Virus record (IMG/VR): IMGVR_UViG_3300048580_000375
Coordinates: 3,304 to 67,303 of that record
Origin: a virus
Length of the DNA stretch: 64,000 nucleotides
Reading direction: 5' to 3' (one strand)
Part shown: piece after piece, positions 1-51,603 of the stretch
Layout: every line of letters starts with the position of its first letter
Numbering within the stretch: position 1 is the first letter of the stretch
The notes under the pieces: model-generated
The model's database searches: none
What the model was told of the DNA's origin: nothing
The model's input: only the letters and a program-made list of their open reading frames with translations
Program-made: the position numbers and the translations under genes

Positions 1-176
1 ATATGACTTAATTTAACTGATTCACTTTTAGTTCTAACAACAAATAAACCATTTTTACAACCATAAGATAATCCATTATTACTAATATTAAAGTTTTTAG
101 CCACCTCAACCCAAGTATGATTTTCATCATAGTATTTTTGTATTTCAACCCAATTATATGTAATATATTTACTCAT
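1..176 (-). CDS. 5' part of a protein running off the window (MSKYITYNWVEIQKYYDENHTWVEVAKNFNIS...), probably an HTH-containing homing endonuclease
   Basis: Open frame from ATG at 176 to the window edge, translated by hand. It has an HTH-like N-terminus and lies directly downstream of tRNA-Lys, like the other endonuclease genes in this array. Confidence 0.5.
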   Translation of the reverse strand, partial: MSKYITYNWVEIQKYYDENHTWVEVAKNFNISNNGLSYGCKNGLFVVRTKSESVKLSH

Positions 177-191
177 ATCTTATTATTTTAG

Positions 192-263
192 TCCTCCCGC
201 CGAGAGTCGAACTCGGCCCCATAGATTAAAAGTCTATTGCCTACACCAGTTTGCTACAAGAGG
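192..263 (-). tRNA. tRNA-Lys(UUU)
   Basis: Acceptor CCTCTTG/CGGGAGG; anticodon arm ATAGA-CTTTTAA-TCTAT; T arm CCGAG-TTCGACT-CTCGG. Confidence 0.9.
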
Positions 264-299
264 TTATTTTTTATATCACCCCCATACCAAGAGAGTGTT

Positions 300-320
300 T
301 TAATTTGGTTTTCGTTTCAT
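300..320 (-). promoter_or_regulatory. Mini-ORF MKRKPN upstream of tRNA-Lys
   Basis: ATG AAA CGA AAA CCA AAT TAA, followed by the hairpin CACTCTC-TTGGTAT-GGGGGTG just before tRNA-Lys(UUU). Confidence 0.5.
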
Positions 321-344
321 CGTCTTAATCTTTTTTTATTCTTT

Positions 345-417
345 GATCCAAATGTCGGATTCGAACCAACTTCCCATCATTACAAGTGACGTGTTTTCCC
401 AATTAAACTAATCTGGA
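345..417 (-). tRNA. tRNA-Thr(UGU)
   Basis: Acceptor TCCAGAT/ATTTGGA; anticodon arm CGTCA-CTTGTAA-TGATG; T arm GTTGG-TTCGAAT-CCGAC. Confidence 0.9.
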
Positions 418-424
418 ATATAAC

Positions 425-459
425 AAAAAACCCTGAACTTTTTAAGGGTTCAGGGTTTT
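425..459 (-). terminator. Attenuator terminator 1
   Basis: AAAACCCTGAAC-CCTTAAAAA-GTTCAGGGTTTTTT ending about 8 nt before tRNA-Thr. Confidence 0.85.
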
Positions 460-485
460 AATATTTATTTTAATATTATTATGTT

Positions 486-590
486 TTACGTTTTAGACAA
501 AACACTTCCTGAACCAAGTGAGATATTATTTCTACCCCCTTTTGTTGTTGCTTTCGCAGTTACCACCATATTTCTGTTCGTGTTTTTCAT
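486..590 (-). CDS. Attenuator leader peptide 1, 34 aa (MKNTNRNMVVTAKATTKGGRNNISLGSGSVLSKT)
   Basis: Short ORF between a promoter and a terminator. It contains ACT GCG AAA GCA ACA ACA AAA and the segment GGTTCAGG (515-508), which is complementary to the 5' arm of the terminator. Confidence 0.75.
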   Translation of the reverse strand: MKNTNRNMVVTAKATTKGGRNNISLGSGSVLSKT

Positions 591-599
591 ATTTGTATT

Positions 600-665
600 A
601 TATAAATAGTATGTTTTTTTCTTTTGTTATACAAAGATATAACTTTTTTTTTAAAATGTCAAACT
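600..665 (-). promoter_or_regulatory. Tandem Bacteroidota sigma70-type promoter and phage TATTTAT motif
   Basis: TTTGAC...TATATCTTTG (-33/-7 consensus TTTG / TAnnTTTG), followed by ACTATTTATA just before the leader ATG. Confidence 0.7.
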
Positions 666-670
666 TTTTT

Positions 671-1000
671 TTAATTTTTTTTCATCCCTTTATGTTTTTT
701 AATCACTTCAATGATTACTTCTACAGGAACATATGGATAAACGGTATCTGTAGGATTATTATTTGATTGAGCATAATCTATAATTAGTTCTTCATATTCA
801 GAAGGAAACCCAATCTCCATTTCGGTAAAATTACTACCAAATTGTCTTGGGTTTGAATATGAAAATTCCCCACCCTGAACTGACATAGAAAATCCATCAT
901 TACATTCTATCCTAGGTCTTGGATTCAAACTAATAGTGGTAGTTTTTTCCAACCACTCTTGAAATTTTACACTTACACTAATTTTCGATAAACTCCTCAT
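671..1000 (-). CDS. Conserved-type phage hypothetical protein
   Basis: 109 aa ORF with a CNDGFSMSVQ...VYPYVP motif pattern. Confidence 0.75.
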   Translation of the reverse strand: MRSLSKISVSVKFQEWLEKTTTISLNPRPRIECNDGFSMSVQGGEFSYSNPRQFGSNFTEMEIGFPSEYEELIIDYAQSNNNPTDTVYPYVPVEVIIEVIKKHKGMKKN

Positions 1001-1328
1001 ATTTTTTTAATAATATTATTAAATCGTTTTCTAACCTATTTTTTAATTCAGTTATATCTTCATAATACCAACCATCTAATTCGTAAATTAAATCGTCATT
1101 TATTGACATGGACATTCTATTTACCCCTGAATTAAATACATATAATTCATCACTATCACTATTACATAACATTATTGTCCAACCACCTAATTGTTGTCGG
1201 TTAGTTAAACTAATATTCCAAGTTAAACCAATATAAGTAAAAAGACGATAAGTTATATTTGAATCATCAACATTTGACACCCAATCATTAGTATATCTTA
1301 ACTTTTTGATTTGTTTTACACTTCTCAT
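978..1328 (-). CDS. Hypothetical protein
   Basis: 116 aa ORF, overlapping and coupled to the next gene. Confidence 0.7.
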   Translation of the reverse strand: MRSVKQIKKLRYTNDWVSNVDDSNITYRLFTYIGLTWNISLTNRQQLGGWTIMLCNSDSDELYVFNSGVNRMSMSINDDLIYELDGWYYEDITELKNRLENDLIILLKKYEEFIEN

Positions 1329-1339
1329 ACTTTGATTTT

Positions 1340-1726
1340 TTAGTAATTTTCATAAAATTTCTCCATTCTTTCCATTACCACATCTAAACTCCAACCACTT
1401 GAACTCTTTTGGTCGTTCCAATGAAAGTAACCCATTTGTATTTTCTCAACACTCCTGGAAATTGACTTGTCGTGTACAAATTCTGGCATACCACCATTAC
1501 CTAAATCCTTGTTGTAGTTACAACGATACTCAACAACTATGTCTTTACCATTGAATTTTTTCGTGTAACGTATTTTAGATTTACCTTTCATTCGTGTCCA
1601 ACCGTGATTAGACATATAAACATCCATTTGTTCGATAACACTATTTTTTGTTACCTCTAAAAAAGCTTGTCTTTCTTCTTCCTGTTTTTTAAGGAAATCG
1701 TAATATTGTTTAACTGTGTTATACAT
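1340..1726 (-). CDS. Hypothetical protein (early-type)
   Basis: 128 aa ORF downstream of a host-type promoter. Confidence 0.75.
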   Translation of the reverse strand: MYNTVKQYYDFLKKQEEERQAFLEVTKNSVIEQMDVYMSNHGWTRMKGKSKIRYTKKFNGKDIVVEYRCNYNKDLGNGGMPEFVHDKSISRSVEKIQMGYFHWNDQKSSSGWSLDVVMERMEKFYENY

Positions 1727-1744
1727 ATCTGTTTTGTTAATTAC

Positions 1745-1780
1745 AATACAAATATACCCCTTTTTTTAATATTTACAAAT
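1745..1780 (-). promoter_or_regulatory. Bacteroidota sigma70-type promoter
   Basis: TTTGTAAAT...GGTATATTTGTAT. Confidence 0.6.
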
Positions 1781-1796
1781 TTTTTTAATTTTTTTT

Positions 1797-1869
1797 GTGG
1801 AATATCTGAAATTCGAATCCAAGCCTTACCCTGTTTAGGGTCTGCACATCCTTATGTGCTTTTATCCCA
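1797..1869 (-). pseudogene. tRNA-like element with aberrant anticodon arm
   Basis: Acceptor TGGGATA/TATTCCA; D arm GCAC..GTGC; TTCGAAT loop; anticodon hairpin ACCCT-AAAC-AGGGT is non-canonical. Confidence 0.6.
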
Positions 1870-1873
1870 TTCG

Positions 1874-1903
1874 TACTACCAACCGGATTTGAACCGACAA
1901 CCT
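1874..1903 (-). tRNA. 3' half of a split tRNA
   Basis: AGGTT-GTCGG-TTCAAAT-CCGGT-TGGTAGT-A; the acceptor strand is the exact complement of ACTACCA at 2651-2657. Confidence 0.75.
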
Positions 1904-2472
1904 TATAATAAATTAAATAAATGTTTATTATGGTACTCCCTATGGCAATTAGAACAAAGTACCTCACACTTATTTAATTCAGGTATTAATTTATCAAACG
2001 ATTTAAGATTACCGCCAGATATCCCAAATTCTTTTTCATTACTATCTTTATGATGTAAATCTAACGCACCTACACATCTATTATAACCACATTTACTACA
2101 CTTACCACCTAAATACTTTAAACATTTAATTTTAATATTCAAACGCCATTGTCTATGCTTTTCATATTGTTTATCACGTAATTCATCTTTTGTTTTAAAT
2201 TTCTTTGGCGTCTTACCGGTATATTTTTTTACCGTACCATATGAAATACCTAATTTTTTAGCGATTTCTTTTTTTGTAATCGATCCGTCATTTAATTCTT
2301 CAATTACTTTAATTAATTCATTAGTTATTTTACTACCCCTATTATTTATAGGGTTGTTTAACCCTTCTTTTTTAAGATGATATGATATTATACCTTTACC
2401 TATATTCAGTTTTTTAGATATATCATCATATGACATATTTTCCCTTCTTAATTTTAAAATTTGATCCCTCAT
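1903..2472 (-). CDS. HNH homing endonuclease with N-terminal HTH
   Basis: GGKCSKCGY...ALDLHH...KCEVLCSNCHREYH motif; HTH-like segments. Confidence 0.9.
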   Translation of the reverse strand: MRDQILKLRRENMSYDDISKKLNIGKGIISYHLKKEGLNNPINNRGSKITNELIKVIEELNDGSITKKEIAKKLGISYGTVKKYTGKTPKKFKTKDELRDKQYEKHRQWRLNIKIKCLKYLGGKCSKCGYNRCVGALDLHHKDSNEKEFGISGGNLKSFDKLIPELNKCEVLCSNCHREYHNKHLFNLL

Positions 2473-2522
2473 ATTTATTTATTTAATAATAAATACATTA
2501 AAAAACTAAAAAGGTTCAATTG

Positions 2523-2594
2523 TTGTGGGTACGAGAATCGAACTCGTATGACAAACGTATAAGATTCGCAGCCTAACCATTAACTGAACCCACA
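2523..2594 (-). tRNA. tRNA-Ile(UAU)
   Basis: Acceptor TGTGGGT/ACCCACA; anticodon arm CGAAT-CTTATAC-GTTTG; T arm ACGAG-TTCGATT-CTCGT. Confidence 0.85.
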
Positions 2595-2607
2595 ATAAAA
2601 ATACTTC

Positions 2608-2657
2608 AAATAATATTCAACCAATTACCCTGCTCTCACCAATTGAGCTATGGTAGT
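2608..2657 (-). tRNA. 5' half of a split tRNA
   Basis: ACTACCA-TA-GCTC-AATTGGTGA-GAGC-A followed by an irregular hairpin; no adjacent T arm. Confidence 0.75.
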
Positions 2658-2667
2658 ATATTATTTG

Positions 2668-2740
2668 TGGGGACGGGTGGTTACGATCCACCTCCTTCAG
2701 TTTTTCAGACTGACGCTTCTACCAAGTTAGCTTCATCCCC
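2668..2740 (-). tRNA. tRNA-Phe(GAA)
   Basis: Acceptor GGGGATG/CGTCCCC; anticodon arm TCAGT-CTGAAAA-ACTGA; atypical T loop ATCGTAA. Confidence 0.9.
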
Positions 2741-2749
2741 TTTTATTTG

Positions 2750-2822
2750 TACTCCCACCCAGATTTGAACTGGGATCCCCACCTTATCAGGGTGGTATCC
2801 TCACCGATTAGACGATGGGAGC
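2750..2822 (-). tRNA. tRNA-Ile(GAU)
   Basis: Acceptor GCTCCCA/TGGGAGT; anticodon arm CCACC-CTGATAA-GGTGG; T arm CCCAG-TTCAAAT-CTGGG. Confidence 0.85.
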
Positions 2823-2832
2823 GTATATTTTG

Positions 2833-2905
2833 TATTCCGTACGGGATTTGAACCCGTAATCTTTTCCTTGAAAGGGAAACGACTTAACCATTTGTCCAAC
2901 GGAAC
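2833..2905 (-). tRNA. tRNA-Glu(UUC)
   Basis: Acceptor GTTCCGT/ACGGAAT; anticodon arm TTTCC-CTTTCAA-GGAAA. Confidence 0.9.
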
Positions 2906-2916
2906 ATTTATTTTAG

Positions 2917-2993
2917 CGGTACCAGTGGAATTCGAATCCACCTGTTTTTCCCGAGTGACAGTCGGGTAGCCACACCTAGCAGCCCCTGATACC
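2917..2993 (-). tRNA. tRNA-Asp(GUC)
   Basis: Acceptor GGTATCA/TGGTACC with G discriminator; anticodon arm CCCGA-CTGTCAC-TCGGG. Confidence 0.9.
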
Positions 2994-3011
2994 ATATTTT
3001 TAAAGAACTAT

Positions 3012-3046
3012 AAAACAAAAAACCCAAACTTATTAGGTTTGGGTTT
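3012..3046 (-). terminator. Attenuator terminator 2
   Basis: AAACCCAAAC-CTAATAA-GTTTGGGTTTTTTGTTTT about 20 nt before tRNA-Asp. Confidence 0.85.
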
Positions 3047-3073
3047 CTCTTAATTTAATCTAACTACACTTTA

Positions 3074-3151
3074 TTAGACACAAAGATATCCCAAACTGAG
3101 GTTTCTATCCTCAATCACGTTAAATTCAAATATGTTAATAATTGTTGTCAT
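3074..3151 (-). CDS. Attenuator leader peptide 2, 25 aa (MTTIINIFEFNVIEDRNLSLGYLCV)
   Basis: ATT ATT AAC ATA TTT GAA TTT AAC GTG ATT GAG GAT, then GTTTGGG (3096-3090) complementary to the terminator 5' arm CCCAAAC. Confidence 0.8.
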   Translation of the reverse strand: MTTIINIFEFNVIEDRNLSLGYLCV

Positions 3152-3171
3152 AATCTTTTTTTTTAATTGTT

Positions 3172-3870
3172 TTACTTTCTTCCTTTAACCCAACCATCTA
3201 ATTGATAAGTTTCAAGGCCTTCTTTTTTAATCTTTTTGTTAGTACCATCTTTGGTTATCCAACACGTACCGAATTGGCTATTTGATTCACCAACACCATT
3301 ACCTTTAGATGATTCAGACATTAGTTTCTTAGTTTCTTCAGAATGTTTTTTATTCTTAAAGGTACCTTCAGAAAAACCAGCATTTGAGAACCCTATTTTA
3401 GTTTTTAAAATCCAATCATCTTTTAATGTTTTATCATTTTCTAATGATATTCTAAAATTTTTACTTATTTCACTTTGAAAATTATCACCAAATTTATTCT
3501 TTAAAAATTCGTTAGTTTTTAATCTACCATTTTTAACACCTTCAGTAAAAAATTTAATTTTATGTTCTTCTGAACTAAAACCCCCATAACCACCTACTTT
3601 TAGATTTATACAATCAATTTTAGCAATTTCGTTTAAATTAACAATTTCACCCTCTCTATTTTTTAGTTCTTCTCTTGTTTTACAAAATTCAAGTATTTCC
3701 CTAATAAAATTTTCTTTACCGTGTTTGTTAATAGAATACCTTAACCTAGTACCACTACCCAAATAACCATCATCTAAATCATCAGTACTATGCATTCCTA
3801 TATAATATTTACCACTTAATATATTTGTGGTTTTATATATGAAATGATACTTTTTTTCTTTTCTCGCCAT
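3172..3870 (-). CDS. GIY-YIG (Seg-like) homing endonuclease with NUMOD3
   Basis: FIYKTTN..GKYYIGMH...YLGSG motif; KHSEETKKLMSES NUMOD3-type motif. Confidence 0.9.
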   Translation of the reverse strand: MARKEKKYHFIYKTTNILSGKYYIGMHSTDDLDDGYLGSGTRLRYSINKHGKENFIREILEFCKTREELKNREGEIVNLNEIAKIDCINLKVGGYGGFSSEEHKIKFFTEGVKNGRLKTNEFLKNKFGDNFQSEISKNFRISLENDKTLKDDWILKTKIGFSNAGFSEGTFKNKKHSEETKKLMSESSKGNGVGESNSQFGTCWITKDGTNKKIKKEGLETYQLDGWVKGRK

Positions 3871-3926
3871 ATCTATCTTTTATAATAAATATGCAGAAAA
3901 ATGTAAAAGTACAAAAAACATTGACT

Positions 3927-4002
3927 TGGTTGCGGAGGATGGATTCGAACCACCGACCTCAAGGTTATGAGCCTTGCGAGCTACCACTGCTACTACTCCA
4001 CA
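3927..4002 (-). tRNA. tRNA-Met(CAU), initiator-like, with encoded CCA
   Basis: Acceptor TGTGGAG/CTCCGCA-ACCA; AGCAGTGGTAGCT D arm; anticodon arm CAAGG-CTCATAA-CCTTG. Confidence 0.9.
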
Positions 4003-4017
4003 ATATATTTTCTTACT

Positions 4018-4082
4018 AATAAATAGTATGTTTTTTTAAATTGTGATACAAATATACTATTTTTTTTCTATTTGTCAAACTT
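4018..4082 (-). promoter_or_regulatory. Tandem host-type promoter and TATTTAT motif upstream of tRNA-Met
   Basis: TTTGACAAAT...TATATTTG...CATACTATTTAT; near copy of the cassette at 600-680. Confidence 0.7.
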
Positions 4083-4093
4083 TTTTTTAATTT

Positions 4094-4537
4094 TTATCCC
4101 CATTGTTGGACTGAAAAAAATATTTTATCGTTCATTTCATCAACCACCTCAGCCATTATCCAACCGTGATTTTCAGGTAATTTACTATCATCACCAATAA
4201 CTTTAAAATATGTCAATCCACCTTCTTCAATTATTCCACCATAAAACAAATCCATTAATTCATCATAAGCTGTTTTTTTAAATCCATAACAACTATCACC
4301 GTCAAGATCTTTGGTTTTTTTGAAGTGTTCAGACCATATTAATATTGGTTGATTCGGATCATTATCATCTATTGAAAAATCAAATTCATCCAAATATTTC
4401 TTTAGTTCTTCAGCTCTTTCATCGATATATCTTGGAATAAATAATTTACCTTTTTTTGGATTTTCATCTTCTTGGATTACCTTATTAATAATGTTGGTTA
4501 ATTCTTGTTCTGTTATTTTAATCTTCTTCATATCCAT
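4094..4537 (-). CDS. Hypothetical protein with KKIKITE N-terminal motif
   Basis: ORF track; TATTTAT motif upstream. Confidence 0.75.
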   Translation of the reverse strand: MDMKKIKITEQELTNIINKVIQEDENPKKGKLFIPRYIDERAEELKKYLDEFDFSIDDNDPNQPILIWSEHFKKTKDLDGDSCYGFKKTAYDELMDLFYGGIIEEGGLTYFKVIGDDSKLPENHGWIMAEVVDEMNDKIFFSVQQWG

Positions 4538-4603
4538 AAATAGTTTATTTTGTTTTATTCTGATACAAAGGTAATATAATTTTTTTATACTTCCAAATGT
4601 TTT

Positions 4604-5551
4604 TTAAATTATTTCAATTTCACTTAAATGTCTGTAATTCAATAACGTATTATAAAAATCTTCTTTATTTTCAAATAACTTTCCTAAATCTCTATCATCT
4701 GGATAATTTAAAACAAATATACGATTTCTTAATTTCCCAGCATTTAATTTCTGATACATCCCATATATTTGTTGGGTGGCGTCAGGATCTAAAGCAATAA
4801 CAATATCAGATTTAGCGTTATCATATATTGCTTTCCATTTAAACTCTGATAATGACTTACCCAATAATAAGAAGTGATTTGGTATTGGTAATCCATCAAA
4901 TACACCTTCAGTTATATATAATGGTTTTTCCCAATCGATTCTATTCTCATTAAATATTAAATCATCTTTATCGGTGTCAGGGTTTAGATATTTTTGTTTA
5001 GCACCAATATATGACCTAGTTGAGAAATAAATAATATTACCTTTCTTATCGTATAATGGAACAACTATTCTTTGCTTATATTTTCCTTCTAAACAAAACC
5101 CAATGTTAAATTCTTTTAATAAATCATCGGTATAACCTCTTGATATAATGTAGTTATAAGGTTGAAGGTGAATATAATTTCTTTTATTTATAATTGAAAA
5201 TGGGATGAATTCTTTTGGGAATTCAGTAATATTTTTATCTTTTTTCGTATATTTTCTCTTATTTATTTGATAATCGTATTCAGGAGCAATTACTTTAAAT
5301 GTATTATAATGCTGTTTATTTCCAAATTTTTTAATAATCCCATCAATTGTTCCTGGAGTTCTTTCACAAGCCCAACAATGGGATAAACCTTCTTCAAGAT
5401 TTATTTCAAGATTTCCTTTCCCATCATATTCAACGTTTTTATCTGCCGAACATAATGGACAATCAACAGTTATTTGTGAGTTTCCGTGATATGTTTTTTT
5501 TATGTTTCCAAAAATTGAAACAACTAAGTCTGTTATAAGAGAATAATCCAT
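4604..5551 (-). CDS. DNA primase (zinc finger plus TOPRIM)
   Basis: CPLC...HCWAC zinc finger; YITEGVFD and ALDPDA TOPRIM motifs; KYLNP. Confidence 0.9.
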   Translation of the reverse strand: MDYSLITDLVVSIFGNIKKTYHGNSQITVDCPLCSADKNVEYDGKGNLEINLEEGLSHCWACERTPGTIDGIIKKFGNKQHYNTFKVIAPEYDYQINKRKYTKKDKNITEFPKEFIPFSIINKRNYIHLQPYNYIISRGYTDDLLKEFNIGFCLEGKYKQRIVVPLYDKKGNIIYFSTRSYIGAKQKYLNPDTDKDDLIFNENRIDWEKPLYITEGVFDGLPIPNHFLLLGKSLSEFKWKAIYDNAKSDIVIALDPDATQQIYGMYQKLNAGKLRNRIFVLNYPDDRDLGKLFENKEDFYNTLLNYRHLSEIEII

Positions 5552-5577
5552 TATTATAAGTATAGGAAAAAGGCATA

Positions 5578-5607
5578 AAAAAATCCCCTTTATTAGGGGA
5601 TTTTTTT
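5578..5607. terminator. Intrinsic terminator
   Basis: AAAAAATCCCCT-TTATT-AGGGGATTTTTTT. Confidence 0.75.
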
Positions 5608-5621
5608 AAAAATGCTTGTTG

Positions 5622-6251
5622 TTACATTAATTCATCTAACATTCCATATCTTCTAGCTGCATCATATAATTTCGGATTTTTAATTTTTAAATCACGTCTA
5701 CTTGTATAATCACCATTTTCAAATTCTTGCCTTATCAATTCAGGTGTCCAAGATGGTTGGAATCTATATGGTATTAATTCATCTAACATACCACGTTTTC
5801 TAGCCGCAAAATATAATTTCGGATTTTTTTTCTCTAAATCACGTCTACTTGTATAATCACCATTTATAAATTCTTGCCTTATCAATTCAGGTGTCCAAGA
5901 TCTTTCTATTCCACTAGGTAATGATTTATTATCATCGAAATAATCCATAGCCCAATCATCCATATAACCAGTCACTTTACCAATTCGCCTATCTAATTGA
6001 TCGTAAACTTGTTTGGTTAAAGTATCGATAAATATTTTATCACTACTTCTATCAGTGTACATAAAAACATCCCCCCCTCTTTCAATTATTTTCATAATAA
6101 GTTCAGCAGAAACTTTAGTTCCCATAGCATATCTTTTAGCTGAAGCAAAATCTGTTATTTTTCTTTTTACAATACCGCCCGGTAAATCTTCATTTTCGTT
6201 AATAACTCGTCTAACGATTCTAACGATGTCTGATTCTGTTAATCTAATCAT
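5622..6251 (-). CDS. Hypothetical protein with RLTESD N-terminus and two 49-aa C-terminal repeats
   Basis: ORF track; SWTPELIRQEF..GMLDEL occurs twice. Confidence 0.8.
   Translation of the reverse strand: MIRLTESDIVRIVRRVINENEDLPGGIVKRKITDFASAKRYAMGTKVSAELIMKIIERGGDVFMYTDRSSDKIFIDTLTKQVYDQLDRRIGKVTGYMDDWAMDYFDDNKSLPSGIERSWTPELIRQEFINGDYTSRRDLEKKNPKLYFAARKRGMLDELIPYRFQPSWTPELIRQEFENGDYTSRRDLKIKNPKLYDAARRYGMLDELM
5627..5901. repeat. 147-bp tandem direct repeat (about 2 copies)
   Basis: ttaattcatctaacat...tcaggtgtccaagat recurs at 5627 and 5774. Confidence 0.85.
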
Positions 6252-7994: not shown

Positions 7995-10900
7995 TTATTT
8001 AATTTCACCGGCAATTATTGCATCATATATTGATTGTAAATTAGCCAAACCCCTCCTGTATGAATTACCATCTTCATACTCTTGTATCGCCTTTTGTAAT
8101 GTCCAACCAGGTCCAGCCGTTAAATTATAAGCCACATTATACGCATCAGTTAAATCAGTAAAACTATTTAAGGCATCTAACCCTTTCTTACCCGACATAT
8201 TACTATATTTATCTTTATCTTTTAACGATGAAAGAGTTTTAATATTATAATCACCTAAAACTTTTGCAGCTGTATCAGGATCCGTTATTTTACTTGGCGT
8301 ATCTTCTAACCCATACTCCCTATATACCGCTCTACCGGTTATTTGATTAAATCCACCACCTCTATATTTATAACCATCACCATCAGGGCTATCATCAAAA
8401 GTTATATTATTAAAAACTATTGGTTCTATATTCTGAGGTTTATTACCTAAGTAAGTCCCATTTTTTATTTTTCTTCCATAATATACTTTATTATAATACC
8501 TTATAGGATTTTCAGCCATAAATTTAATAGTATCATCACCGGCAGGTAATATTTCATTTATAAATGTTTTATTACCCCCAAAAATTGATTTTATACCTCC
8601 TTCTCCATCAATTTTTTTAGTATATGTCTGTTCTCTAACCGGTTTTAAACCACTTTCTTTTGACGCAACCGCCATTATACCGGCAATCATTTCTACGCTA
8701 GTGTAACCAAGCGTTTTTAATGTATTATATATATTATTTGCATTAGTTTTAGCTGTAGCTGATAAATTTTTATAATAATTATTACTTGGGGTTACGGTAG
8801 ATAAAACATTACTAACACCTTTTTCCAATATTTCTTTTGTTAATGTAGAAACAAATTCACTTACTAATGGGAAGTTTAGACTTGACATTCTAACACCTTC
8901 AAAGTTTGTTACGACATTGTTTGGTTGTATTGAATGGGATACTTTTGTTATTAGATACAAACCACTAAATAGTGGAATATATCTTAAATAAAAATACATT
9001 GTTGGTTGTATCATCATATTACCTAACGATTCAACTTTACAAGTATAACTTCTTCTAGATAAAATAGGATATATGTTATTACCTATTGTTTGAACAGATC
9101 TATTTTGTTTTTGAGATGTTAATTGATCCCAAACAGTAATACTTTCATTTGTCTCCCTAAATTCAGCCTGATCTAAACTAATACCTCTAAACATATTTTG
9201 GTTTTTAATACCCATATCAACAAAAAAAGCAACAGGTTCATTCACCTTATTAGTATCAGTAAGATCATTAAATGGGGATTTAGATGGACTTTCAAATCTT
9301 TCGTTTGAGAAATCAATTTTAACAACATCAGGTATATGGTTTTGATTTTCATATTGATACGACGCATTCTTACCCACATATTGCATAATAAACACAGGTG
9401 ATGTAGATTGAAAATCAAGTGTATTTATTGGTTTAAATAACCCATCAATTAAAGCATTTTTGTTGGAGTTAGCTGTTAAACCACCAAAATTGATATATGA
9501 TGTTAATGGGTGAAAAATCATTTCATTCATTTTAGCCAATTCACCTATAATACTATATAAACTATTTTTTGAATTTACTTTCTCATAGTAATCTTTTAAC
9601 ACCCTAAAATCTAACAATAAATCACCCCCAATATCTCTATTAATTCTATCAACAAAAAAGAAGTGATCGAATAAAAATTCTCTATTATCATTATATTTTA
9701 ATTCATTATTTGAATCCACATCACCTTCTAACCCCCAAGTATATCTAAGCCTATCACCATCTTTCTTATCAATAACCCACTTATCATTTACATTCTTGAA
9801 TGTTTGATATAAAGATTTTTTTAAATCACTAGCTGTTTTTACCGCTACGGCATTAGATCCGGATTCAGGATTATTTTTATCATTTTTAATTATTTTCACC
9901 TCAATTTCGGTAATTTTTCTTTGGAATCCTGTTAAATATTTTTTAATTATAAAAGCCTGATTATAAACATTGTATCTAATACCATTATATGTGACTTGTG
10001 AAAAAATCCCGTCTTTGGTGACATTTGTATCCCACTCATTATTATTTGTCCAATATTTTAACCAAACATCATATAATTTAGACAATCCGTTTGATTTCGC
10101 AACCATTTGTATTTCAACATCAAAAAACTCTTTAATTAAAGAATAAACAACTTTTAATTCTTTTCCATCCATTTTTTTAACAGATTCGCTTACATTACCA
10201 TTATTCCTAAATACGATAGTATTACCATTTTTATTTATGGTAAAAGGAACAATAGCGTTGTCCGAATTAGCATTTTCTGTTTGATATATATCTATATCGT
10301 ATAAAATATGGTTTTCACCTACTCTAGTTAAACCATTTTGTATTGTTTCAGCTATAAATTCTACTAATTCCTTATATACTTCTAAAAAAGCTTTTCTATT
10401 AGCTATATAGATTTCGTCTATATTTTCATACGAATCAGGGTTGTTTGGGGTTGTAAATGGAAAATAATAATTATATTTAGTATTAAATGGATTTTTATAA
10501 TCACCATCACGGCTCATATAAAATCTATTATTAAAAAATAAATAACTTAAAGCGTTTACCATTTTTGTTATGTGTATTCCATTAAATAAAGTAAAATCAC
10601 TAAAATCATCTAAAACACCTGGGAGATATTTTAAAATAGTTTTAATCGTATTTTCAGCGGCTTGTAAATTATATAAAACATTTTCTAATGAAGTTAAAAG
10701 ATTAGTATCATTATTCAAAAGAGTTTTATTATAAACCATTCTTTCATCTTGTTTTTCCATAAATGGAAAAAACATCGCCTTTAACGATATTTCATTTGGG
10801 TATTCAAATTTTTCTTTTCCATATTTAATAAATCCATTATTCCCAACTTTAACCGAACCAGCACCATAATCGGCCGATAAACTTATTACATTATCTTTAA

Positions 10901-48117: not shown

Positions 48118-48497
48118 TCTTGGTTGTTATATTTTAGTATTTTGGGTATAAATTTATTAAATATTTTAGGCGAATATTTTATCATAAAATCTAATTCTTC
48201 CTGAGCAATATCTTCAGATGGGAAAGTAACTGGTTTAACTTTTTCACCTTTATCGTTAAATTTTGATATAAAACAACAAGTCCCATCATAATATTGAGAT
48301 AAAAAATATTTTTTAGGTTTATATTTTTCATCTAAGTTAAATGTATCTTTAAATCTATTAACTACTTTCTTATAATCATTTAATTCATCTTTATTAATGA
48401 AAATAATATAATAGGTTTTTTCACCACCAAAAGTATGGGTTTTATGTAAATCACCAACTTCATTAATAACACCTTTACTAATAATTACTTTTTTCAT
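48108..48497 (-). CDS. Hypothetical protein
   Basis: ORF track. Confidence 0.65.
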   Translation of the reverse strand: MKKVIISKGVINEVGDLHKTHTFGGEKTYYIIFINKDELNDYKKVVNRFKDTFNLDEKYKPKKYFLSQYYDGTCCFISKFNDKGEKVKPVTFPSEDIAQEELDFMIKYSPKIFNKFIPKILKYNNQEWK

Positions 48498-49709: not shown

Positions 49710-49944
49710 TAGAAAAAAAACTAAAAAAACTTTTACCGAACAATGGGGGGCGTTATTGAATGGTGTTATAATGCCAACAATACAAAGATTTACCCACAGA
49801 ACATTAGGTGAAGATATAGTGTCAGTTCAACCAATGGAGGCGCCTATTGGTATTCTTAATTACATAGATTTTCAATACGGAGTTGCGTCAGAATCAACAT
49901 TTCCTTTTTGGAAAATTAAAGTTATATTTAATAAAAAAAAATAA
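49684..49944 (+). CDS. Small protein resembling the gp23 Gol-peptide region
   Basis: VIMPTIQRF..TLGEDIVSVQPMEAPIGILNYIDFQY. Confidence 0.7.
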   Translation: MRTINQYVSRKKTKKTFTEQWGALLNGVIMPTIQRFTHRTLGEDIVSVQPMEAPIGILNYIDFQYGVASESTFPFWKIKVIFNKKK

Positions 49945-50936: not shown

Positions 50937-51603
50937 TGTAAGAAAAAAGATGATGGGTTTGGTTACGGCTTTCTTTATGGGTTTAAATGAGGCAGATAAA
51001 CAAATCTTAAAATCTCAATTAAACACTGTTGATGAATCACAACTAGGTCATCACCAAATGAATATTAAAAGCCCGTTTTTAAATGGGATAAATCAAGGTA
51101 AGATAACTGAAGAACAAAGACAACATTTTTATAAGGTATTACACCTTGCAGAACAAAAATGGAGAACATCAAAAGGATTTGATGATCCTGAAAAAATGAG
51201 AACATTGATGGAAAAAAGGGGAATGAATGGTGTATTAGAAAGTATTAGTTGTGAGCCAATAGATATGGGGCTTAGTAATGAATTTTACTACCCTGTAAGA
51301 ACAAATGCTGAACAATTTGAAATTGAAAAGATTGCTGAGAATATGTTGGTATATGACAATGAAATTAAATTTAGGTGTCCTATGTTTAATAATAGGAGAA
51401 TATTTGAAAATATAAGAGGTGAGGGTAATGTATTAAGGGAATTAATGAATACAACACAAGTTGAATGGGATAAAAAAGAATTTGACAATGTGGGTGTTAA
51501 ATACACTTATAATACATATGATTATAATGTAAGTTATAAGAATACAATAAAAGAAAATGATGACTATTTTTTAGTTGTGTTTAATAAAAATAATATAATA
51601 TAA
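50929..51603 (+). CDS. Hypothetical protein
   Basis: ORF track. Confidence 0.7.
   Translation: MDDVRKKMMGLVTAFFMGLNEADKQILKSQLNTVDESQLGHHQMNIKSPFLNGINQGKITEEQRQHFYKVLHLAEQKWRTSKGFDDPEKMRTLMEKRGMNGVLESISCEPIDMGLSNEFYYPVRTNAEQFEIEKIAENMLVYDNEIKFRCPMFNNRRIFENIRGEGNVLRELMNTTQVEWDKKEFDNVGVKYTYNTYDYNVSYKNTIKENDDYFLVVFNKNNII

Follow-up and report, generated by a model that had tools for sequence, protein, structure and literature searches.

Comparison with described attenuators and tRNA arrays

Multivalent leader-peptide attenuators are known from enterobacterial amino-acid operons, namely thr (Thr/Ile) and ilvGMEDA (Ile/Val/Leu), alongside the single-amino-acid forms trp, his, leu and phe. Here we describe a locus in the DNA of a lake phage (IMG/VR record IMGVR_UViG_3300048580_000375), termed unit 1, in which a short leader open reading frame (ORF) and an intrinsic terminator precede a block of five transfer RNA (tRNA) genes. 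The window analyzed comprises 64 kb (positions 3,304 to 67,303 of the record) out of a 67.3-kb virus contig with a G+C content of 25-31% and 17 tRNA genes. Judged from its sequence organization, unit 1 is probably a ribosome-mediated leader-peptide transcription attenuator, which senses the decoding capacity for the codons of its own tRNA block.

The likeness to the thr and ilvGMEDA attenuators lies in a short, presumably translated leader that is rich in the sensed codons and samples several amino acids, in an intrinsic terminator placed before the regulated genes, and in a distal leader segment complementary to the 5' arm of that terminator. Unlike the amino-acid operon attenuators, the phage units would gate tRNA genes instead of biosynthetic enzymes, so that the decoder itself would be fed back; their leaders sample 5 to 11 tRNA species each, and three units share out nearly the whole code. 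They are, moreover, borne by a phage, with a probable host from the Bacteroidota, without Shine-Dalgarno sequences. The five tRNA genes behind leader 1 lie outside the biosynthesis and synthetase targets known for this family of attenuators. The phage units have no relationship in sequence to Rfam leader families. The Rfam model Thr_leader (RF00506) gave 22.5 bits at 3013-3074 and 23 bits at 422-476 (gathering score 55, E-values 0.4-0.5), both on terminators, and no T-box or other Rfam leader family was matched in positions 1-4300 at E-values up to 1.

In Escherichia coli, the pheM leader controls the pheST operon (phenylalanyl-tRNA synthetase) by attenuation. As in the phage units, leader-peptide attenuation there acts on a component of the translation machinery and responds to charged-tRNA supply; in contrast to them, pheM is bacterial, controls a synthetase, reports on one amino acid and gates no tRNA gene. 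The T-box riboswitches of Firmicutes bind uncharged tRNA by means of leaders of ~200 nucleotides (nt) or more, with a specifier loop and a T-box sequence, and regulate synthetase and amino-acid genes. They share with the phage units a choice between terminator and antiterminator that reports the state of specific tRNAs, and differ in the direct binding of uncharged tRNA and in the Rfam T-box match, which is lacking in the region searched here.

We know of no leader-peptide control of the tRNA cluster of phage T4. That cluster carries the homing endonuclease SegB (cited in PMC8421152), to be compared with the GIY-YIG-type gene at 3172-3870 of the window. According to the same article, a long tRNA array of Anabaena 7120 is silent until translation is impaired, and homing endonuclease genes reside in such arrays (PMC8421152). 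The Anabaena array resembles the phage units in that accessory tRNAs respond to translational stress; it is bacterial, and the main text of the article, in which attenuat-, leader and terminator do not occur, describes no leader-peptide mechanism (PMC8421152). Full-text literature searches, with subscription-only and older papers outside their scope, turned up no account of leader-peptide attenuation of tRNA genes. The idea that attenuator-like leaders might occur at the tRNA-Phe genes of E. coli was dropped: pheV of strain MG1655 has promoter-like sequence directly 5' of the tRNA, inspection of its upstream region by eye found no leader ORF and no terminator, and a literature search on pheV and pheU brought up nothing relevant to attenuation.

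Leader 1, its RNA elements and the tRNA block behind it

An earlier, sequence-only reading of this DNA had placed on the minus strand a leader ORF at 3151-3074, a GTTTGGG segment at 3096-3090 and a terminator ahead of tRNA genes for Asp, Glu, Ile, Phe and Ile. All of these were located as claimed:

3074-3151, minus strand: leader ORF 1, 25 codons plus stop, ATG start, MTTIINIFEFNVIEDRNLSLGYLCV
3107-3142, minus strand: control-codon core, ATT ATT AAC ATA TTT GAA TTT AAC GTG ATT GAG GAT
3094-3116, minus strand: hairpin of regions 1:2, GAUUGAGG / CCUCAGUU, present in minimum free energy (MFE) folds
3090-3096, minus strand: antiterminator segment GTTTGGG, a copy of the terminator 3' arm, complementary to CCCAAAC
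3017-3049, minus strand: intrinsic terminator 1, with 13-base-pair (bp) stem, 7-nt loop and T-run
2522-2993, minus strand: gated tRNA block 1, five tRNA genes (ARAGORN, Rfam)
2993-2916, minus strand: tRNA-Asp(GUC) (ARAGORN)
2905-2832, minus strand: tRNA-Glu(UUC) (ARAGORN)
2822-2749, minus strand: tRNA-Ile(GAU) (ARAGORN)
2740-2667, minus strand: tRNA-Phe(GAA) (ARAGORN)
2594-2522, minus strand: tRNA-Ile(UAU) (ARAGORN), after a 72-nt gap downstream of tRNA-Phe

The earlier count of control codons was reproduced: the five downstream tRNAs decode 9 of the 12 core codons, and each of the five is represented among them. The 5' arm of the hairpin lies within the control codons, while its 3' arm overlaps the antiterminator segment. 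The arms of terminator 1 are AAACCCAAAC (3046-3037) and GTTTGGGTTTTTT (3029-3017), and a consensus scan of positions 1-6000 gave 11 terminator-like sites versus a mean of 1.9 in shuffled sequence. The distance from the T-run to tRNA-Asp is 23 nt. No promoter motif was found in these 23 nt between terminator 1 and tRNA-Asp, and block 1 would therefore be transcribable only through the terminator.

The control region, defined by structure, extends from codon 2 up to the antiterminator segment. In long ORFs, the codons of block 1 account for 26.6% of all codons, and 12-codon windows with at least nine of them for 0.3% of windows; among short ATG ORFs, 2 of 171 reach 9 of 12, leader 1 being one of the two. 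Over the complete control region, leader 1 carries 9 own-block codons in 17 (binomial P 0.019).

The tRNA-Asp gene is atypical, being matched by Rfam solely in a narrow search (34.9 bits; gathering score 29), and shows compensatory changes among relatives in the anticodon and T stems. The 72-nt gap downstream of tRNA-Phe (2595-2666, minus strand) resembles a tRNA 5' half, and a weak Rfam tRNA match (1874-1949, minus strand, 22.3 bits, below gathering) adjoins an HNH/HTH endonuclease gene at 1903-2472; together, the two are consistent with a tRNA gene split by insertion.

Sister units in the same clade

The close relatives compared are three IMG/VR contigs (L001-L003) with primase proteins 88-91% identical. 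In this clade two further units have the design of unit 1, with a promoter, a leader ORF, a gap of 22-26 nt, a terminator and a tRNA block. Unit 2 is in the window:

191-662, minus strand: unit 2, whose block runs on past the window
662-630, minus strand: unit 2 promoter
590-486, minus strand: leader ORF 2, beginning MKNTNRNMVVTAKATTKGGRNN
515-508, minus strand: unit 2 antiterminator segment, GGTTCAGG
459-427, minus strand: unit 2 terminator
417-345, minus strand: unit 2 tRNA-Thr
263-191, minus strand: unit 2 tRNA-Lys

The order of block 2 is Thr, Lys, Lys, Asn, Arg, Val, Ala, Met, Gly, Thr, Gly. Unit 3 lies past the contig end and was found in L001-L003; its leader begins MKTLINISLSSLYLLQSLCQSCVSVLPLHQYWLVLGF, and its block reads Pro, Gln, (Tyr), Trp, Ser, His, Ser, Leu, Leu, Cys, Arg.

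Own-block codons occupy 20 of 24 positions in the control region of leader 2 (P 2e-6) and 25-26 of 34 in that of leader 3 (P 1e-8 to 1e-9), and the 3x3 table of leaders by blocks gives a chi-square of 62.7 (P 8e-13). When short ATG ORFs were ranked blind, leader 2 came first among 218 (16/17, runner-up 12) and leader 3 first among the 84 of L002 (16/17, runner-up 11). The remaining two frames of the leader stretches had lower scores and contained stop codons. Leader 2 samples all nine tRNA species of its block (P 8e-4), and leader 3 samples 10-11 of 11 (P 7e-4 to 3e-5). Within four-fold boxes, codons ending in A or G are favoured in leader 3 (12/13, P 0.001), and not clearly so in leaders 1 and 2.

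Each leader ORF also holds a 7-9 nt complement to the 5' arm of its own terminator, that is, a copy of the 3' arm. The unit 2 segment GGTTCAGG was matched in 18 of 5000 shuffles, its counterpart in L001 and L002 (GGTTTAGGG, with one G-U pair) in 104 of 5000, and the unit 3 segment GGATTTAG in 58 of 5000. When leaders and terminators were crossed, leader 1 paired over 7 nt with its own terminator and over at most 3 nt with the terminators of the other units.

Several features of the sister blocks were observed in passing. A TTTGACA sequence is conserved 17 nt 5' of tRNA-Pro, past the unit 3 terminator (L002 19085-19111; L001 19567-19592), and no recognizable -10 or -7 box accompanies it in L001 or L002. 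A spacer of ~215-255 nt between tRNA-Gly(GCC/ACC) and tRNA-Gly(UCC) is likewise conserved (L002 14962-15176, L003 14063-14317); the 215-nt form of L002 matches no Rfam family and folds unremarkably (z -1.7), and in the contig containing the window ARAGORN calls an 86-nt 'tRNA-Thr' within this spacer.

A second lineage with differently partitioned blocks

A search anchored on ClpP kept 80 loci, 77 of them more distant. Most of the 77 have no tRNA within 4 kb, and L057, L072 and L074 show no clear unit. One distant locus, L028, has a leader (a, MKNLNTLNRTTLALGNDDRGNLCVKFRI) ahead of tRNA genes for Asn, Gly, Gly, Asp and Thr. In its whole record, termed G001, ClpP is 66% identical, 27 Rfam tRNA matches occur, and the tRNAs are partitioned differently. 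The Leu and Arg codons of leader a predicted further tRNAs, and further downstream G001 does carry Leu(UAA), Arg(UCU) and Leu(UAG); a later, relaxed search added a tRNA-Ala(UGC) to block a, matching the GCG codon of the leader.

Two more G001 terminators precede differently partitioned blocks, and the compositions of their leaders were predicted before the sequences were read. The tRNAs behind leader b (MRTSINHISSFVEQHEVCFSFGMRC) are Val, Glu, Phe, Phe, His, Ser and Met, and those behind leader c (MKPINKNMISKRQPQISICWYPRITHSSVIGESNIS) are Pro, Ile, Cys, Trp, Tyr, Gln, Arg, Met and Ser. Own-block codons amount to 18 of 22 in leader a (P 2e-5), 12 of 24 in leader b (P 5e-4) and 16 of 25 in leader c (P 5e-6). 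In the 6x6 matrix of both lineages, all six leaders are most enriched for their own block (2.0-3.0x). Leader c, for example, is rich in Ile and free of Leu, and its block holds tRNA-Ile, while Leu-rich leaders precede tRNA-Leu blocks. Each G001 leader also contains a 7-9 nt complement to its own terminator.

All six leaders open with variants of the motif M-[K/R/T]-x-(x)-[I/L/T]-N (window 3151-3131 and 590-570; L002 18879-18902; L095, reverse strand, 457, 4352 and 8649), and leaders 1 and 3 share ACA..ATT AAC ATA. In view of the shared start motif, the units seem to have arisen by duplication and divergence of a single ancestral leader. L095 (reverse strand, 8059-8163 and 8444-8560) also has two long tRNA-like genes, with Rfam scores of 34-35 bits, which ARAGORN reports only when introns are allowed.

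In the public annotation of the Caulobacter phage phiCbK, predicted terminators at 48120-48166, 49745-49769 and 51465-51502 stand directly before tRNA blocks. On inspection, small ORFs ahead of two of these terminators contain runs of the amino acids of the block. An example is QFVRQIQVVRNI before Phe, Val, Ile, Ile, Val, Gln and Gln; in gp083 (45 amino acids), 25 residues come from the block's amino acids, but 16 are Ala or Thr. The phiCbK layout appears similar to that of the units described here.

Conservation among close relatives

Leader ORF 1 is present in all four genomes of the clade. Compared with L001-L003, the leader unit is 94-96% identical and the ORF itself 96-97%, the primase gene 87-89% (third positions 72-76%) and the tRNA genes downstream of the leader 78-89%. 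The leader is conserved despite two types of tRNA-Met upstream and a local endonuclease insertion. One of its variants is synonymous, and two lie in the loop and the 3' arm of the hairpin. An A-to-G change in the relatives keeps the hairpin pair as U-G and extends the antiterminator to 8 bp (the 8-nt version was matched in 84 of 5000 shuffles); the A-to-G variant at 3097 also occurs in contigs of two DNA runs. Terminator 1 is invariant across the four genomes except for the length of the T-run. Mosaic recombination has occurred locally, as a 147-amino-acid gene is 97% identical to that of L001, and the high identity of leader 1 is hence suggestive and no proof of constraint.

Leader 2 is more telling. 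By eye, 12 of the 24 control codons of leader 2 differ from those of L001, and both versions keep 20 of 24 within the set of the block. A Cys codon of leader 3 has become Arg(CGC) in L001, still within the block 3 set. Comparison of L003 13860-13990 with L002 13540-14890 shows the unit 2 promoter fused directly to the spacer preceding tRNA-Gly, a natural deletion variant without attenuator.

Scans of viral_contigs with the back-translated leader 1 and with the antiterminator-terminator geometry retrieved nothing beyond the three relatives. A scan of metagenome_contigs anchored on tRNA-Asp gave two records, one of them identical to the window over the stretch compared. A blastn search with 2300-4200 returned 298 records, consisting only of tRNA and homing-endonuclease pieces, none with at least 80% coverage. 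With a 606-amino-acid helicase, tblastn returned 1470 records, every one below 60% identity, and no close cultured phage.

Organization upstream of leader 1

The sequence-only reading had described the leader, the terminator and the tRNA genes correctly, and had missed three upstream elements:

4049-4079, minus strand: unit 1 promoter, TTTGACA, 16-nt spacer, TATATTTG, predicted from sequence
3927-4002, minus strand: tRNA-Met(CAU) (ARAGORN; Rfam 54.3 bits)
3172-3870, minus strand: GIY-YIG (SegE-like) homing endonuclease gene (Pfam SegE_GIY-YIG 26.2 bits, cut-off 25)

A consensus scan lists the promoter at 4078-4051 as TTGACA-16-TATATT (11/12). It is compatible with both sigma-70-like and Bacteroidota-like (TTTG / TAnnTTTG) forms and would function as a promoter; sequences of the same design stand ahead of units 2 and 3. 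Apart from the endonuclease gene, the order of unit 1 is promoter, tRNA-Met, leader, terminator and five tRNAs. The tRNA-Met gene, situated between the predicted promoter and leader 1, lies outside the gate that the terminator would form. Two unrelated sequence types of this gene occur in the relatives (window 3927-4002; L001 11555-11629; L002 11126-11199). The L002 type has a 5' C opposite A72, and both types have two G-C pairs at the foot of the anticodon stem, features which we take to be initiator-like. If it is an initiator tRNA, its place is upstream of the attenuator.

The distance from tRNA-Met to tRNA-Asp is 933 nt in the window and 198-199 nt in L001 and L002, where the spacer consists of the leader ORF and terminator. 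L003 has leader 1 and its terminator and no endonuclease gene; a tRNA-Met-like sequence upstream is not called by ARAGORN. Since the spacers of L001-L003 do without it, the homing endonuclease gene is an insertion and no part of the switch. Its GIY-YIG and NUMOD3 Pfam scores are slightly below the cut-offs. The gene has its own CATATTTATTAT motif 5' of the ATG, and its stop codon falls within sequence common to the uninterrupted spacer.

A Shine-Dalgarno-like 4-mer precedes only 2 of 57 phage genes, so that the A-rich start context of leader 1 is normal here. Only two features, the form of the promoters and the missing Shine-Dalgarno sequences, point to a probable host from the Bacteroidota. 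A (C)TATTTAT(A) motif, which resembles a phage-specific (late-type) promoter box, stands close upstream of many gene starts (e.g., 3885-3874 and 613-603) and also of leaders 2 and 3.

Folding and the proposed switch

According to the sequence-only reading, GTTTGGG would form an antiterminator that excludes the terminator. In computed folds of the nascent RNA lacking the terminator 3' arm, GUUUGGG does pair with CCCAAAC of the 5' arm, and this pairing is specific to the unit. Ribosomes were modelled with an assumed footprint from -15 to +13 nt around the A-site. In the constrained nascent folds of leader 1, the antiterminator is present with the A-site at codons 2-15, weaker at codon 16 and gone at codons 17-26. 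The corresponding boundaries fall at codons 22/23 in leader 2 and 32/33 in leader 3, where the own-block codons end or close to that point. These folds suggest that a ribosome held on the control codons leaves the antiterminator free, while an advanced ribosome covers it. In the full-length MFE fold, the GTTTGGG segment is sequestered in the hairpin GAUUGAGG/CCUCAGUU and a long-range helix.

From these features the following course of events may be proposed. Transcription would start at ~4079-4049, pass through tRNA-Met and, in this strain, the inserted endonuclease gene, and enter the 25-codon leader. With fast decoding of the Ile, Phe, Glu and Asp codons, the ribosome would reach the distal leader and cover GUUUGGG, upon which the 13-bp terminator would form and transcription would stop 23 nt before tRNA-Asp. 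When a charged cognate tRNA is scarce, slow decoding would keep the ribosome upstream; GUUUGGG would then pair with CCCAAAC, the terminator could not nucleate, and the polymerase would read into the genes for Asp, Glu, Ile, Phe and Ile. The result would be a closed loop, in which each tRNA block is produced on demand for its own codons.

Weighing the attenuator against other explanations

The view that unit 1 is an attenuator of the trp/his type, put forward in the sequence-only reading, gains support from the sister units, the pairing of each leader with its own terminator, the second lineage and the absence of an intervening promoter. The proposed tracking of downstream anticodons by leader codons across related arrays was borne out in G001, whose leaders match their own, differently partitioned blocks. 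It is the sister units and the second lineage, rather than the statistics of leader 1 alone, that make the case; it is carried by the anatomy of the units and its conservation, by the codon-to-block match in six leaders of two lineages and by the unit-specific complementarity of the antiterminator segments. From these we infer the translation of the leader, the direction of the switch and its physiological trigger. Candidate triggers are loss of host tRNAs, a nuclease defence or the codon-usage demand of the phage itself. The anti-defence role against anticodon nucleases that the sequence-only reading put forward is a conjecture.

A number of observations weigh against an attenuator, and they are considered here together with the explanations that they favour. 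Taken in isolation, leader 1 is weak evidence and no statistical outlier: 14 of the 218 short ATG ORFs of the contig score at least 9/17 for block 1 in the blind ranking, block 2 accounts for 7 of the 17 control codons, the sampling of all five block 1 tRNAs has a P of 0.059, and the 7-nt complement to the terminator 5' arm is matched in 191 of 5000 shuffles (P about 0.04). Its first seven codons (ATG ACA ACA ATT ATT AAC ATA) are also much like those of leader 3 (ATG AAA ACA TTA ATT AAC ATA), and part of the Ile match may thus be inherited. With 3 of 78 columns variable in four genomes, the ORF offers too few changes for a covariation test. When contigs of two RNA runs were compared with 2450-4100, their alignments, which showed many differences, were confined to tRNA-Met-like sequence and the endonuclease gene; none reached over the leader, and nothing about its expression follows from them. 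The design is not universal, L003 having lost leader 2, its terminator and eight tRNAs (Thr to Met), and six distant loci (L047, L056, L063, L064, L080, L092) have promoter-like sequence directly 5' of the tRNAs and no convincing leader ORF. In G001 itself, the interval from each terminator to the first tRNA contains a ~90-nt conserved element (L095, reverse strand, 600-700, 4500-4595 and 8820-8912), which features GTTC(A/T)TTGAAAT and a TAnnTTTG-like box and could be a bypass (second) promoter or a processing signal. The figures for leader 1 would suit an ordinary, partly leaky terminator of the upstream unit (tRNA-Met and endonuclease gene), with the ORF and GTTTGGG arising by chance in an AT-rich spacer. 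Such an origin is nevertheless very improbable, given that conservation is higher in the spacer than in the tRNA genes and neighbouring coding DNA, that two sister units and three units of the second lineage repeat the design (P 5e-4 to 1e-9), and that block 1 has no other promoter.

The folding results bear on what the leader controls. When the RNA was folded with and without a ribosome, as the sequence-only reading had proposed, the switch appeared in the truncated co-transcriptional model with its assumed footprint, and there alone; in full-length MFE folds, the terminator of leader 1 (13 pairs) is kept at all 25 ribosome positions. The truncated RNA forms the antiterminator even without a ribosome, unlike the trp paradigm, and in leader 3 a ribosome that has arrived at the stop codon no longer blocks the antiterminator. 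All of this would fit a leader that is translated and senses decoding, with an output other than an antiterminator switch, through precursor processing or stability, Rho or the uncoupling of transcription from translation, or with the opposite sign, fast translation then favouring read-through; the codon-to-block match speaks for sensing and not for any given output. We consider this unlikely, as a model free of an antiterminator does not need the unit-specific complements of 7-9 nt just past the control codons, and the leader stop codons, 22-26 nt upstream of the terminator stems, are too far away for direct masking. The conserved hairpin and alternative pairings would equally be expected of an RNA-only switch without translation of the ORF, in which the leader RNA directly binds a factor (uncharged tRNA as in T-boxes, a metabolite or a protein). 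This is hardly credible: the Rfam searches described above matched no T-box or other such family, the signal is frame-specific at the codon level, and leader 2 has changed half of its codons and kept its amino-acid set, which fits decoding and not RNA recognition. Moreover, 80-130 nt of RNA would have to sense five to eleven tRNAs.

Implications for phage tRNA genes

The purpose and control of phage tRNA genes are an open question, and the ideas in circulation are that they compensate for codon usage, stand in for host tRNAs that have been degraded, or allow the phage to evade anticodon nucleases. In the literature searched, limited as stated above, no earlier case was found in which tRNA genes are under feedback from their own codons. 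It is possible, if doubtful, that large phages of several host phyla run closed-loop decoding sensors, with the code split among a few tRNA operons, each switched on by stalling at the codons it serves. The host pool would then be replaced block by block when it is degraded or cut by anticodon nucleases, and the tRNA genes would form a circuit of counter-defence and takeover, not housekeeping.

The cultured phage phiCbK, with its similar layout, provides a tractable system, and the rule that leader composition predicts block content can be applied to thousands of phage genomes. If the attenuator reading of unit 1 is true, the phage measures decoding speed for defined sets of codons and answers with the matching tRNAs, and classical attenuation would be extended from the supply of amino acids to the supply of decoders.

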